From assembly GCF_003334335.1 (NCBI RefSeq), contig NZ_QOWQ01000010.1: a DNA stretch of 64,000 bases. One strand, written 5' to 3'. Every line of letters begins with the position of its first letter. Within the stretch, counting starts at the first letter, position 1. The position numbers and the translations under genes were made by a program. This stretch comes from Escherichia coli (lineage in GTDB: Bacteria; Pseudomonadota; Gammaproteobacteria; Enterobacterales; Enterobacteriaceae). The notes under the pieces were generated by a model. The model did not search any database and was not told the origin of the DNA. It saw nothing but the letters and a program-made list of their open reading frames with translations. This document shows positions 1,912 to 64,000 of this stretch, piece after piece.

Positions 1912-2463
1912 ATGCAAACGAAAAAAAATGAAATTTGGGTGGGTATCTTTTTATTAGCAGCACTGCTGGCGGCGCTGTTTGTTTGCCTGAAGGCGGCGAA
2001 CGTGACGTCCATACGTACTGAACCGACCTACACGCTTTATGCGACGTTCGATAACATTGGCGGCCTGAAAGCGCGCTCTCCGGTCAGTATTGGTGGCGTT
2101 GTTGTGGGTCGGGTGGCGGATATTACGCTGGACCCGAAAACCTATCTGCCGCGCGTAACGCTGGAAATTGAACAACGTTATAACCACATTCCAGATACCA
2201 GTTCGCTGAGCATTCGTACTTCCGGCCTGCTGGGGGAACAATATCTGGCATTAAACGTCGGTTTTGAAGACCCGGAACTGGGGACTGCTATCCTGAAGGA
2301 TGGCGATACAATTCAGGACACTAAGTCTGCGATGGTGCTGGAAGATCTCATTGGTCAGTTCCTTTACGGTAGTAAAGGCGATGACAATAAGAATAGTGGC
2401 GATGCGCCAGCTGCTGCGCCAGGTAATAATGAAACCACTGAACCTGTGGGTACAACGAAATAA
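1912..2463 (+). CDS. mlaD: MCE-domain periplasmic substrate-binding protein MlaD
   Basis: ORF-track 1897..2463; start trimmed to ATG at 1912 (MQTKKNEIWVG, N-terminal TM anchor), 183 aa. Confidence 0.9.
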   Translation: MQTKKNEIWVGIFLLAALLAALFVCLKAANVTSIRTEPTYTLYATFDNIGGLKARSPVSIGGVVVGRVADITLDPKTYLPRVTLEIEQRYNHIPDTSSLSIRTSGLLGEQYLALNVGFEDPELGTAILKDGDTIQDTKSAMVLEDLIGQFLYGSKGDDNKNSGDAPAAAPGNNETTEPVGTTK

Positions 2464-58397: not shown

Positions 58398-58439
58398 AAC
58401 TCAATCCTTAGTCTGATGAACTTGACGTCGGGCGTTGTC

Positions 58440-58580
58440 GCTTTCACTTGCCTTTCGTTTCATTTCACTTGGTGATGTCTTTCGTTGATTAAAATCTATA
58501 GAAAAGAAACTGAAAGTTCAATGGAGAAAAAAGAAATAAAACGAAATTTGTGATCGTTGAAAGAAAAGATAAAGGAAGCA
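58440..58580 (-). promoter_or_regulatory. agaS promoter region with candidate AgaR (DeoR-family) operator repeats
   Basis: Repeated CTTTCGTTTCATTTC / AAACGAAA-type motifs (e.g. CCTTTCGTTTCATTTCACTT, AATAAAACGAAATTTGTG) upstream of agaS. Confidence 0.45.
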
Positions 58581-58590
58581 AAAGGGATTG

Positions 58591-58672
58591 CTGGATGCGG
58601 CGCAAACGCTTTATCCGGCCTTGCGGTCACCAACTGTAGGTCGGATAAGACGCGTTAGCGTCGCATCCGACA
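58591..58672. repeat. REP/BIME-type palindromic repeat
   Basis: GGATGCGGCGCAAACGCTTTATCCGGCC...GTAGGTCGGATAAGACGCGTTAGCGTCGCATCCGAC between agaA and the agaS promoter. Confidence 0.65.
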
Positions 58673-58747
58673 CCGCTGCACAGATCAAAACGAAAGAAAA
58701 AGAAAGGCCTTACGGGGGAAGTGAAGGCCCAATAAAGGAGCAAACTA

Positions 58748-59881
58748 TCAAAACGAAGCTAATTGACCCTGAATCCAGATTTGTTGCACATGTAGCCCGC
58801 TATCCAGCGCAACGACGCTGGCGCGTTTGCCCGGTTTAAGCGATCCCAGAACACCATCAACACCCAGCATTCGCGCCGGATGCAGCGACGCCATATGGAT
58901 GGCTTCCGCAGGCGTTACGCCCGTCAACTCGACCATATTGCGCACTGCCGCATCAACAGACAGCGTACTGCCCGCCAGCCCACCAGACGCGGTACGGACA
59001 ACGCCACCGTGCATCTGCACTTCTTCACCACATAACGTATAGCGACCATCCGGCATCCCAGCTGCCTGCATCGCGTCGGTGATCAGTACGATTCTCTCTT
59101 TCGCACAGCAACAACACAGCGACATTGCCGCCGGATGCACATGATGACCATCGGCTATCAGTTCCAGCCAGGCGCGCTTGTCCGTTAATCCCGCGCCAAC
59201 CATTCCCGGTTCGCGGTGATGTAAACCTGTCATCCCGTTATAGCAATGCACCAGGCCGTCGGCACCAGCATCAAATGCGGCGCGGGTTTGTTGCCAGGTC
59301 GCCGCGCTATGCCCCAGCATCACCCTTACGTTTTGCTGTTTAAGATGGCGGATGGCCTGCAATGCCCCTTCTTTTTCCGGTGCCAGCGCTACCACACGTA
59401 AGGTGTGCTGAGAAACGGCAATCAACTGATCCAGCTCGGCAATTTCAAGCTCGCGAAACAACTCCGGCGGATGCGCGCCTTTATTCTGCGGCGTGAAGTA
59501 CGGTCCTTCGAGATAACTCCCCAGCACTTGCGCACCAGGTCCGCCGCGTTGGCAACGTTGAGCAATACGTTTCAGCGCCGCATGAATGGTATTAAGCGGC
59601 GTGGTTACGGTGGTCGGTAACCAACTGCCGACACCTTCGCGTGCCTTGTGCATTGCCAGCTTGTCGAGTACATCCGGCGCGTCATCCATTACATCAACGC
59701 CCGCACCACCGTGTACATGGGTGTCGATGTAAGCAGGGCAGAGCAGTTCCGCATCGCGTTCAGTCACGCCCGCTGGAATCGGTTCGATTGCTGCGATGAC
59801 ACCGTCAGCAATACGCAACTGATGGTCATCGAGCCATCCCTCTTCAGTCAGCAGCCTTCTGGCGCGCAGAACGTGTGTCAT
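58748..59881 (-). CDS. agaA: N-acetylgalactosamine-6-phosphate deacetylase AgaA (full length)
   Basis: ORF-track 58748..59902 trimmed to ATG 59881 (MTHVLRARRLLTEEGWLDDHQLRIADGVI...), 377 aa, NagA-like amidohydrolase; ATG overlaps agaF stop (ATGA). Confidence 0.88.
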   Translation of the reverse strand: MTHVLRARRLLTEEGWLDDHQLRIADGVIAAIEPIPAGVTERDAELLCPAYIDTHVHGGAGVDVMDDAPDVLDKLAMHKAREGVGSWLPTTVTTPLNTIHAALKRIAQRCQRGGPGAQVLGSYLEGPYFTPQNKGAHPPELFRELEIAELDQLIAVSQHTLRVVALAPEKEGALQAIRHLKQQNVRVMLGHSAATWQQTRAAFDAGADGLVHCYNGMTGLHHREPGMVGAGLTDKRAWLELIADGHHVHPAAMSLCCCCAKERIVLITDAMQAAGMPDGRYTLCGEEVQMHGGVVRTASGGLAGSTLSVDAAVRNMVELTGVTPAEAIHMASLHPARMLGVDGVLGSLKPGKRASVVALDSGLHVQQIWIQGQLASF

Positions 59882-60312
59882 ATTCCTTCCTCGACCGGAC
59901 ATTCTTCATGGCAGCGGCCTAACTCGTCCACCAGACTGGTCAGCCCTCGGTGTCCACACTCCAGCGCCTGTACACGGAATTCTTCACCGCTTAACCCTTC
60001 GCGCTCCAGCACCATCTCCAGTAGCAGTTGCAAATTGGTGCCGGTGATCACTTCACAGCCCGGTTTTTGCATCGCCAGCGTTGAAGCTACGCGAAACGGC
60101 GTGCCGCCCAGCAAATCCGTCAGAAAAACAATGCCGTCTTCACAATCCAGTTGGGCGATGGCCTCTTCAAGCTGCGATGTAAGCAGCGCGGTGCTTGAGG
60201 TTTCCGGAAAATCGATGGCGATAAACTGCGATTGCTCACCGAGAATTTGCTTCATTGCTTTTTCCATGCCGCTGGCAAACCCGCCATGCCCTGTCAAAAT
60301 AATACTTAACAT
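59878..60312 (-). CDS. agaF: GalN PTS EIIA component AgaF
   Basis: 144-aa ORF MLSIILTGHGGFASGMEKAMKQILG..., mannose-family IIA. Confidence 0.88.
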   Translation of the reverse strand: MLSIILTGHGGFASGMEKAMKQILGEQSQFIAIDFPETSSTALLTSQLEEAIAQLDCEDGIVFLTDLLGGTPFRVASTLAMQKPGCEVITGTNLQLLLEMVLEREGLSGEEFRVQALECGHRGLTSLVDELGRCHEECPVEEGI

Positions 60313-60329
60313 CTAATACCTCATTGTAT

Positions 60330-61214
60330 TTAAAGGAAATGGCAGAATTTACCGACGATGCCGAGAACCACGGTAACTGCAATCAGACGCAGCGGACTCC
60401 AGCCGCGGCGTACCAACCAAAACATGGTCAGGGTGTAGACCAACGGTAAGAAGGCCGGCATCAGTTTGTCGATAACATCAGCCTGTAACTTAACCACTGC
60501 GTCGCCCGCCGTGATTTCCAGCGTGGTGCTTAAACGAACATAGGTTGCCACCAGCGCACCGATTACCGTCATCCCAACGATAGACGCAGCATGGCCGACT
60601 TTTTTGGTATTCGCTTTAATCAGTGGAATCGCCGCCACGCCCATGCGGTAAGCATAATGCGCCAGACCAAAACGCAGCCCCAGGTGTACCACGTTGAACA
60701 GCACAATAAAGACGACTGCGCCAAGAATGGAGCCTTGCAATGCCAGACTGGCTCCAATCCCGCCACAAATCGGCAGTAGCGTTAGCCAGAACATTGCATC
60801 GCCAATCCCGCCAAGCGGCGCACCGACGGCAATTTTGGTGCTCTGAATACTGTTAACGTCCTGCTTAGAACGCTCCATCGCAAGGATAATGCCGATAACA
60901 AACGTCACCAGAAACGGATGGGTATTGAAGAAACCCATATGCCCCTTCATGGCGCGCGCCAGGTCGCGTTTATTAGTGTGGATCTTTTTCAGAGCAGGCA
61001 GCAGACCGTACAACCAGCCAGAAGCCTGCATACGTTCGTAGTTAAAAGACGCTTGTAACAGCATGGAACGCCAGGCGACGCGGTTGATATCTTTTTTCGT
61101 CAGCTCCGCGCCAATGCTCTGATCTTCATACACGTTTTCATTGACGCCAGTCAGCAATGTTTCTTCGTTTTCACTGACGTTCGGCAGGGTGGTTTGATTA
61201 GATGCCATCTTCAA
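60330..61214 (-). CDS. agaE: GalN PTS EIID component AgaE
   Basis: 294-aa membrane ORF, paralogous to AgaD (shared SLLQASFNYERMQA motif). Confidence 0.88.
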   Translation of the reverse strand: MKMASNQTTLPNVSENEETLLTGVNENVYEDQSIGAELTKKDINRVAWRSMLLQASFNYERMQASGWLYGLLPALKKIHTNKRDLARAMKGHMGFFNTHPFLVTFVIGIILAMERSKQDVNSIQSTKIAVGAPLGGIGDAMFWLTLLPICGGIGASLALQGSILGAVVFIVLFNVVHLGLRFGLAHYAYRMGVAAIPLIKANTKKVGHAASIVGMTVIGALVATYVRLSTTLEITAGDAVVKLQADVIDKLMPAFLPLVYTLTMFWLVRRGWSPLRLIAVTVVLGIVGKFCHFL

Positions 61215-61977
61215 ATTCCTCTTTCTGTGCCGCAGGTTGAGTCGGTTCAGGAGATTTACGCAGCAAGTCGATCAGCGCCATCGCCAGCGCAGCGGCAGCA
61301 ATAGCCAGCACTGGTAACTTGAGCCAGGCGGCGGCAACAAAGCCCAGGATGAAGTAGGGGATGTAGACGTTTTTCATCATGATTTTCAGCAGCACGGCAA
61401 AACCGATTGCTGGCATGATGCCGCCCGCGACGCCGAGGCCGTCGATTAATCGTTGCGGCAGGACATCAATGATGGTTTTTGCATGTTCCGCGCCGAAGTA
61501 GATAGGCAGGAAAGCGCAGAGAAAATAGAAAATGCCGAGTGCCAGCAGTGCCAGATAGTTCACGCGTTCAATGCCGCGAGTATCGGCGTTCTCCGCCATC
61601 CGGTCGCAGCGAGACATCACGCCGGACATCACCGAGAACAGGAAGGTAATCCCCATCTGTACTGCGACAGCGAAAGGTACGGCGACACCTACTGCGACAT
61701 CGGGTTTCACGCCAGTAGTAATGGCAAACGCCGTGCCGACGATAGTACCGATAATCACGTTAGGCGGCTGTGCGCCCGCCAGCGGGGCCAGCCCCATCCA
61801 CACCAGTTCCAGCGTACCGCCGGTTAAAATTCCGGTATGCAGATCGCCAAGTACCAGCCCGACCAACGGGCCGAGGACCACCGGGCGGTGCATATGGGTT
61901 AGGCCGTTAAACATATCCAGGCCAGCGATAAAGGCGATAATGCCCAACGCAAATGCCTGCAACAGGCTGATTTCCAT
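61198..61977 (-). CDS. agaW: GalNAc PTS EIIC component AgaW (full length)
   Basis: 259-aa membrane ORF, paralogous to AgaC. Confidence 0.88.
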   Translation of the reverse strand: MEISLLQAFALGIIAFIAGLDMFNGLTHMHRPVVLGPLVGLVLGDLHTGILTGGTLELVWMGLAPLAGAQPPNVIIGTIVGTAFAITTGVKPDVAVGVAVPFAVAVQMGITFLFSVMSGVMSRCDRMAENADTRGIERVNYLALLALGIFYFLCAFLPIYFGAEHAKTIIDVLPQRLIDGLGVAGGIMPAIGFAVLLKIMMKNVYIPYFILGFVAAAWLKLPVLAIAAAALAMALIDLLRKSPEPTQPAAQKEEFEDGI

Positions 61978-62483: not shown

Positions 62484-63764
62484 TTATTGGCCTTCACAGG
62501 CTGTGTGGTACTGCGCCAGGATGTCCTGAATATGGTTGATAATGAGTTCCCGTGGCGTTGGCTGCAGCTCGCCGGAGCGAACTTTCACGTACTGCAGCGG
62601 CAGATACTGGCTGATCAGCGGCAGCGGAATTGGTGAATCCGCCAGATTACGTACCAGATGAGCGAAAGCGTCATCAATCTGGCTGTCCGGCCAGTAATAG
62701 CGCACGCGATCCGAGTAGCTATAACCACGCGCCAGACGACGCGCGTTGCCGTCACCGTGGTAGTGGCTTTGCCAGTATTCCGGGCGGTCGAGCATCACGT
62801 CTTCCAGCACCTGACGCAGACCAGAACAGGCTTTCGCTGGCACCAGTTCTTCTTCAATCGCCGCCAGAGAGAACAGAGCTTCACGCAGGGCGAAGGTCAG
62901 CGCTGGGCCAACTTTCAGAATGGCAAAGTGGTCAATCACCAGCTGGCGCAGCGATTGCGGCGTTTGATAATCGGTAGAGTGCGCTTCGAAAATCAGCGTT
63001 TCGTAGTTTTCGACCATCTGGCTTAAGGCGCTCGCTTTGGCGGGCTGATAATCAATAACGTTGGTGTGATCGAATTCGACGCCGGGTTGAACCACCAGGG
63101 CAATGATGCGTGGCCAGATGGCATTCAAACCTTGCTTTTCAAAGGCGTGACGATGGGCTTCCAGCGTGGCGCGGGCGGCATCCGGCGTGGTGACCGCCAG
63201 CTCGCTTAAGGTTTCATGCGCGCCGCCAGGTACCGGCACTTCGGTACCAATGACATACTCCAGATCGGCTTCGCCAAAGTGTTCAAGACAGGTTTCTTCC
63301 GCCACTTTCGCCAGACGGGCGGCGCGTTCAGCCACGATGTCATCAGTTAAGGGAATCGGATCGTCCTGACAGGACATGCTGCAATCAAGGTGGATTTTTT
63401 TGAATCCTGCCGCAACGTAGCTTTTAATCAAATCATCGGCATTGGCCATTGCCTGAGCGGCCGGCAGGTTTTGCCAGCGGTTTGGCCCCAGATGGTCACC
63501 ACCCAGAATCAACGCATCCTGCGGGAAATTCAACGAGTCGGCGAGCTGACAAACAAAGCCGCGAAAATCGGCGGGCGTCATTCCGGTATAACCGCCGAAC
63601 TGGTCTACCTGATTGGAGGTTGCTTCAATCAGTAACGGCGTTTGGTTTGCACTGGCGTAGCGGATTGCAGCCTCCAGCACCAGCGGATGTGCGGAACAAA
63701 CGGCATAAATTCCATTTGTTTTGCCCGCTTTGTGCTGTCTCACCATTTCTGTCAGATGTTTCAC
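62484..63764 (-). CDS. kbaZ: Tagatose-bisphosphate aldolase non-catalytic subunit KbaZ (AgaZ)
   Basis: 426-aa [36 protein letters not shown]... initiating at GTG; first gene of kbaZ-agaVWEFA. Confidence 0.92.
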
Positions 63765-63779
63765 TTTCCTCTCCAGTTC

Positions 63780-64000
63780 AGATTACTGCGATATTAATCT
63801 TTCGTTTTGTTTCAGTTGATACTGCGTCATGGTGAGATAAAAATAAAACGAAAGATAATAGTTTTCTGATCTGTTTCACAAAAGAAACATAATGAAAGTC
63901 ACTGAAACGAGAGTAGCTTGCGTCAATGGGCAAGGTGGGCTTGCATTTGCTTAATAGAAAGGCGTTAATAGGCAAAACGAAATGAAACGAAAGTTTTACG
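63780..64000. promoter_or_regulatory. kbaZ upstream control region with candidate AgaR operator repeats
   Basis: Multiple copies of TTTCGTTT/AAACGAAA motifs (CTTTCGTTTTGTTTCAG, AAATAAAACGAAAGATAAT, GGCAAAACGAAATGAAACGAAAG) upstream of kbaZ; window ends before any divergent agaR CDS. Confidence 0.45.

Follow-up and report, generated by a model that had tools for sequence, protein, structure and literature searches.

The end of the window, as we call the whole 64,000-nucleotide stretch of Escherichia coli DNA analysed here, holds a repeat-rich sequence (63780-64000) and raises the question of what these repeats do and which protein acts on them. A preliminary description had counted at least four copies of a motif upstream of kbaZ, and four exact AAACGAAA/TTTCGTTT octamers were confirmed; the longer string that it quoted, GGCAAAACGAAATGAAACGAAAG, was found exactly at 63971-63993, and the position of kbaZ on the minus strand (Table 1) does place the region upstream of this gene. 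Taking the explanation as a whole, we regard it as very probable that the octamers form the core of AgaR operators, of which there are four, each about 24 bp long.

The octamers were clearly concentrated. Ten copies were present in the 64-kb window, against 3.75 ± 1.9 expected, and 7 out of those 10 fell between genes of the aga cluster, in two regions (63765-64000 and 58398-58747). Being AT-rich (65% A+T), the region was shuffled on its own composition: 20,000 dinucleotide-preserving shuffles of 63780-64000 contained a mean of 0.06 octamers and a maximum of 2, none of them reaching 4. The shorter TTTC/GAAA tetramer appeared 12 times in the same interval, compared to 4.9 ± 1.7 expected.

The gene to the left, kbaZ, is the first of the kbaZ-agaVWEFA operon, which is controlled by the region studied here, and it is followed on the minus strand by agaV, agaW, agaE, agaF, agaA and agaS, in that order. 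The deacetylase gene which by its position is agaA (L001 3349-4482, equivalent to 58748-59881 of the window) is named nagA in RefSeq, with the product "N-acetylglucosamine-6-phosphate deacetylase"; we take this label as a naming inconsistency and not as a biological feature. The regulator gene agaR had been expected just beyond the window, and the extended sequence, taken from a 100%-identical E. coli genome (NZ_AP027404, locus L001), indeed revealed a divergent agaR, so that the control region is cut by the window edge. The ATG of agaR, on the opposite strand to kbaZ, would have the window coordinate 64013, which is 13 nt past the last base of the window, and the divergent gap between both genes measures 248 bp. 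The agaR product matched the NCBIfam equivalogs PRK09802 (577 bits; cut-off 351) and AgaR (465 bits; cut-off 260) and carries the Pfam domains HTH_DeoR and DeoRC, which identify it as a DeoR-family regulator. The locus is widespread in the species, as the 1.6 kb around the region was present with at least 95% identity in 5,319 of 5,426 complete E. coli genomes, and with 100% identity in several. The intergenic region of K-12 MG1655 departed from that of the window at two bases, 63860 (A; G in K-12) and 63874 (T; A in K-12), both outside the operators, and the region upstream of agaS was identical in K-12.

Table 1. Features of the agaR-kbaZ control region and related sites in the window (positions in window coordinates; conservation is column-wise, among orthologous loci).
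Feature	Position	Strand	Description
kbaZ (agaZ) coding sequence	62484-63764	-	GTG start at 63764; ORF list and RefSeq annotation of identical genomes
kbaZ ribosome-binding region	63765-63776	-	minus strand reads CTGGAGAGGAAA, directly before the GTG; mean conservation 0.98 (77 species)
Non-operator stretch	63775-63795		conservation 0.60
Octamer TTTCGTTT	63800-63807	+	exact match
Octamer AAACGAAA	63846-63853	+	exact match
Octamer AAACGAAA	63975-63982	+	exact match
Octamer AAACGAAA	63985-63992	+	exact match
O1, probable operator	63796-63819	+	AATCTTTCGTTTTGTTTCAGTTGA; 3 mismatches to consensus; left arm of inverted pair with O2; conservation 0.88
O2, probable operator	63834-63857	-	minus strand reads TATCTTTCGTTTTATTTTTATCTC; exact TTTCGTTT core; 4 mismatches; right arm of the pair; conservation 0.89
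CRP-like site	63865-63880	+	TCTGA-TCTGTT-TCACA (TCTGATCTGTTTCACA); centre 63872/63873; between O2 and O3
O3, probable operator	63878-63901	-	minus strand reads TGACTTTCATTATGTTTCTTTTGT; 1 mismatch; conservation 0.93
O3-O4 spacer	63902-63937	.	sequence conservation 0.44; length kept
Predicted agaR promoter	63941-63969	+	-35 TTGCAT (63941-63946), 17-nt spacer, -10 GTTAAT (63964-63969)
O4, probable operator	63973-63996	-	minus strand reads AAACTTTCGTTTCATTTCGTTTTG; 0 mismatches; contains the two adjacent octamers first described; conservation 0.89
AgaR-type operator, agaS site 1	58449-58472	+	TGCCTTTCGTTTCATTTCACTTGG; perfect consensus match; upstream of agaS
AgaR-type operator, agaS site 2	58527-58550	-	minus strand reads CAAATTTCGTTTTATTTCTTTTTT; 1 mismatch; upstream of agaS
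Weaker AgaR-type site, agaS site 3	58686-58709	-	3 mismatches; exact octamer at 58688-58695; agaA-agaS intergenic
Off-target consensus match	1914-1937	-	3 mismatches; over the first mlaD codons, ATGCAAACGAAAAAAAATGAAATT

To delimit the operators, the window was scanned with a 24-nt AgaR consensus, WRMMTTTCRTTTYRTTTYNYTTKK, which we take to be that of Ray and Larson (2004), allowing up to 3 mismatches. Seven matches were obtained against 0.21 expected, all but one of them in the aga intergenic regions named above. Two were perfect, although the consensus was itself derived from K-12 sequence and the perfect matches are therefore partly circular. The consensus string gave no match in a full-text literature search whose scope did not extend to the primary K-12 footprinting paper. 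The operators share the form of a run of TTTC-type pentamers, TTTCR-TTTYR-TTTY, which in O4 reads CTTTCG TTTCA TTTCG TTTTG. Two of them, O1 and O2, form an inverted repeat (I1) with 16-nt arms (63797-63812 and 63841-63856) that are 94% complementary and lie 28 nt apart; O2 was not listed by the scan because it exceeds the mismatch limit by one. O3 abuts the CRP-like site, with a 3-nt overlap. As it lacks an exact octamer, O3 had not been counted before: the four octamers of the preliminary description stood, but they missed this operator. Next to O3, the sequence TGAAACGAGAGT (63902-63913) repeats TGAAACGAAAGT of O4 with 92% identity (direct repeat D4) and is a possible extra half-site, lying in a stretch that is not conserved outside Escherichia.

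The region upstream of agaS, with which a comparison had been proposed, contained the same motif, in the form of three more octamers and three 24-nt consensus matches, one of them perfect. This agaS promoter region (PS, 58398-58747) thus resembles that of kbaZ in its TTTC-pentamer operators, one a perfect match to the consensus, and also in their arrangement, a plus-oriented site nearest the gene being followed by a minus-oriented one. It differs in the core spacing of the inverted pair, about 94 bp compared to 54 bp at kbaZ, and in having embedded REP-like elements and no divergent regulator gene. Two inverted REP-like sequences, gctggatgcggcgcaaacgctttatccggcc ... ggtcggataagacgcgttagcgtcgcatccgac, were recognised by eye in the agaA-agaS intergenic region (58585-58680), between the second and third AgaR-type sites. 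The sole consensus match outside the aga cluster was at the mlaE/mlaD junction (ATG CAA ACG AAA AAA AAT GAA ATT) and was judged a chance occurrence, most likely caused by lysine codons.

We then considered how the operators are placed with respect to the promoters. The sigma-70 scan gave no kbaZ-strand promoter at threshold, so the overlaps between operators and promoters could only be inferred. The best -10 candidate in the kbaZ direction, read from the sequence, was CAGTAT (63824 to 63819). Transcription of kbaZ would start near 63811-63812, with a leader of some 48 nt; O1 would lie over this start, roughly from -8 to +16, and O2 over the -35 region. The predicted agaR promoter also fell below the threshold of the consensus scan and its hexamers were likewise read from the sequence; it coincided with two conserved blocks, 63938-63947 (0.93) and 63953-63970 (0.95). 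The agaR transcript would begin near 63976, a position putatively covered by O4 (about -3 to +21). Two plus-strand candidates found by the scan, TTGATA-17-AAAAAT (63816-63844) and GTGAGA-16-GATAAT (63832-63859), are located some 170 bp upstream of agaR and were not adopted, because the conserved blocks at 63938-63970 better fit a proximal agaR promoter; they could represent a secondary promoter or mere chance. A terminator-like match of 5 pairs (63930-63944) was also judged to be due to chance, as it lies in non-conserved spacer.

Between O2 and O3, the sequence TCTGATCTGTTTCACA was the only one-mismatch match to TGTGA-N6-TCACA in the 15.6-kb locus, in which the total of CRP-core matches at up to 2 mismatches was no higher than chance. 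Across the 77 species used for conservation analysis (see below) this block was conserved at 0.93. Its right half-site TCACA was kept in 63 of the 77, and the left one was mostly TCCGA (47 of 77), matching T..GA only. The block as a whole overlaps AgaR-like sequence and is similar to O1 in degenerate form (direct repeat D1, 72% identity), so part of its conservation could reflect AgaR rather than CRP. A GATC sequence, the Dam methylation site, is present within it (63868-63871), and GATCTG showed a conservation of at least 95% among the 77 species; the GATC may simply be part of a protein-binding site. In K-12, kbaZ has been listed as a known cAMP-CRP target and was recovered as such by genomic SELEX (PMC3105977). 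With CAGTAT as the -10 hexamer, the predicted CRP centre falls near -61, a classical class I position, from which the CRP-like site would activate the kbaZ promoter.

If the repeats are operators, their position should be maintained in other bacteria carrying agaR. Representative genomes were scanned with the AgaR protein, yielding 80 loci (AgaR identity from 81% to 99%) from about 30 enterobacterial genera, including Escherichia, Citrobacter, Klebsiella, Raoultella, Enterobacter, Kluyvera, Salmonella (arizonae and diarizonae), Yersinia, Serratia, Buttiauxella, Cedecea and Mixta. The conservation set comprised the 77 loci in which kbaZ and agaR are divergent neighbours, that of NZ_AP027404 included, i.e. 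76 other species. The kbaZ-agaR gap was 245-251 bp long in 75 of these 77 loci, and octamer density reached 0.0122 per bp within the gap compared to 0.00010 per bp in the flanks, an enrichment of about 119-fold. Consensus matches occurred at fixed offsets from the agaR ATG, about -220, -138 and -41, and the motifs, whose absence from orthologous loci would have spoken against a regulatory role, were found at the same positions in the 76 other species. O1 kept its place in most of these 76 loci, O3 showed no indels in any of the 77 species, and the TTTCRTTT core of O4 was retained in 57 of the 60 indel-free orthologues. Column-wise conservation of the operator blocks ranged from 0.88 to 0.93, values close to those of the first and second codon positions of agaR (0.93 and 0.96, with 0.61 for the third), indicating that selection on the operators is about as strong as on non-synonymous positions. 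The spacer between O3 and O4 had drifted in sequence, yet the stretch 63899-63937 measured 39-42 nt in 73 of the 77 species.

The motif also tracks the aga promoters where gene order differs, as in Salmonella arizonae and Citrobacter. In Salmonella enterica subsp. arizonae and diarizonae (L023 1-2755 and L016) agaA directly follows kbaZ, with no agaVWEF transporter genes between them, and the motif cluster of S. arizonae is located just past the agaA stop (L023 47-169), where E. coli has the agaS promoter region. Several Citrobacter loci possess a further cluster directly downstream of agaR, which in Citrobacter amalonaticus (L008 3887-4081) consists of three TTTCGTTT/AAACGAAA motifs; the arrangement was also seen in L014, L019, L028, L031 and L039. 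After this cluster comes a second DeoR-family gene (L008 4127-4630), whose best NCBIfam match was AgaR with 199 bits, below the cut-off, and beyond it a ROK-family N-acetylglucosamine-kinase-like gene and an oxidoreductase gene. The second AgaR-like ORF of L008 ends at 167 aa and may be truncated or frameshifted. It may be an AgaR paralogue sharing the operator type.

The Citrobacter arrangement bears on the question of which protein binds the repeats. Because the same motif precedes a second AgaR-like gene there, cross-recognition by a paralogue is conceivable, and the repeats might be bound mainly by another protein, either a DeoR-family paralogue or a nucleoid protein with a preference for A/T tracts, AgaR playing a minor part. 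We consider this very unlikely. Each of the 77 loci has both the motif and agaR, and deletion of agaR alone makes the regulon constitutive, agaA and agaS being expressed at 50-fold and 175-fold, respectively (PMC3668189); since the loss of agaR suffices, binding by another protein finds no support. AgaR has been described as a DeoR-family autoregulator which represses agaZ and agaS by direct binding (PMC4694137), and AgaR binding and AgaR-dependent repression in K-12 are reported by both PMC3668189 and PMC4694137, citing Ray & Larson 2004. Moreover, one O4-type site is enough to place a synthetic promoter under repression by AgaR: the sequence CTTTCGTTTCATTTTCGTTT, given as the AgaR binding sequence "from PkbaZ", represses when placed at +1 (PMC8667592, Table S3). 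This 20-mer is essentially O4, one T being displaced with respect to the genomic CTTTCGTTTCATTTCGTTTT (63974-63993), a difference due either to a slip in typing or to intentional adaptation.

The long and nearly complementary arms of the O1/O2 repeat, separated by 28 nt, could also be read as an RNA hairpin in the kbaZ leader, acting as an attenuator or stability element instead of as protein operators. This reading seems to us highly improbable. The kbaZ start would fall inside the repeat, leaving a single arm in the transcript; the motif stands alone at O3 and O4 and is arranged in other ways in front of agaS; and both arms are conserved as TTTCG itself, so pairing gains no support from compensatory changes. 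The published work attributes the repeats to AgaR binding, and the Rfam search of the region returned no family match, only sub-threshold hits to Phe_leader on both strands (E about 0.4; 21 bits for a gathering score of 55), which we discarded as an artefact of TTTC richness. Finally, that the motifs are a functionless by-product of an AT-rich, low-complexity intergenic region has a negligible probability in our opinion: the weak Phe_leader matches do show that TTTC richness can mimic other patterns, but none of the composition-matched shuffles reached the observed count, the motif is found again at the agaS promoter of the same regulon, and its positions and sequence are conserved over some 30 genera while neighbouring intergenic bases drift.

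None of the analyses of this locus gave a result contradicting the AgaR operators. We are quite confident that the region harbours a set of four AgaR operators, with a CRP-like site, and that it serves the divergent control of agaR and kbaZ within the aga/gam regulon for the use of N-acetylgalactosamine (GalNAc) and galactosamine (GalN). What was directly observed comprises the enriched motifs, the DeoR-family gene next to them, a further operator cluster and the constancy of the motif positions across genera; when it comes to how the region may work, binding, repression and CRP targeting of kbaZ are taken from the K-12 papers, and promoter hexamers, transcription starts and overlaps from the spacing of the elements. 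Without inducer, AgaR would occupy all four operators. The inverted O1/O2 pair would bracket the kbaZ core promoter and block RNA polymerase, O3, by touching the CRP site, could hinder activation by CRP, and O4, over the agaR start, would allow AgaR to limit its own synthesis. During growth on GalNAc or GalN an inducer would release AgaR, and cAMP-CRP would then activate kbaZ-agaVWEFA from a position some 61 bp ahead of the kbaZ start. Similar operators upstream of agaS would bring about the co-regulation of agaS-kbaY-agaBCDI.

The distances between operators offer a further hint. The modal core-to-core distances were 53 bp for O1-O2 (about 5 helical turns) and 95 bp for O3-O4 (about 9 turns), and the constancy in length of the O3-O4 spacer suggests a constraint on spacing or phasing. 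Because this length is fixed despite sequence drift and the distances approach whole turns, an AgaR oligomer might conceivably bridge the operators through phased DNA loops, so that the autorepression exerted at O4 would be physically coupled to events at O1-O3, namely the repression of kbaZ and the exclusion of CRP; we put forward this idea tentatively and think it rather doubtful. The fixed spacer length nevertheless provides a cheap, testable hint of looping by a DeoR-family repressor, a modest refinement and not a discovery.

Beyond correct annotation, the significance of these results is slight, the length-conserved O3-O4 spacer being the only mildly new point. The cross-genus footprint, in which the promoter blocks of agaR and the CRP-like site accompany the four operators, could help to refine operator boundaries and to annotate the aga regulons of other Enterobacterales. 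The work as a whole also illustrates that a real operator array can be recognised from sequence alone, as was done in the preliminary description.

The agaR-kbaZ region is an already characterised control region of the K-12 type and an example of ordinary textbook regulation. Ray and Larson reportedly described, in 2004, the agaR-agaZ(kbaZ) control region of E. coli K-12, with its promoters PR and PZ and its AgaR operators. It is the same locus as that found here, with the same divergent gene pair, DeoR-family repressor and repeat motif, and identical operators. The operon under control is what differs: agaW, agaE, agaF and agaA are intact in the window (59878-61977), which consequently derives from a strain with a complete aga cluster and kbaZ-agaVWEFA operon, whereas K-12 MG1655 (L082 4702-5626) lacks agaE/agaF and retains agaW and agaA only as annotated pseudogenes, the remains of a deletion.

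Among other regulatory systems, those of GlpR, DeoR and SrlR are close, as these regulators belong to the same DeoR/GlpR protein family as AgaR, act on multiple operators per region and release their targets in response to an inducer derived from a sugar. Both DeoR and GlpR bind several operators as oligomers, with loop formation in the case of DeoR. The operators of GlpR and DeoR have been described as roughly palindromic, unlike the AgaR sites of this locus, which consist of tandem direct TTTC pentamers. The streptococcal regulators also called AgaR, i.e. AgaR1 and AgaR2 of S. suis and AgaR of S. pneumoniae, have in common with the enterobacterial protein the name and the control of GalNAc/GalN genes (PMC4694137, PMC5018945), but they belong to the GntR family, recognise unrelated binding motifs and are not homologous to the DeoR-type system that operates here.
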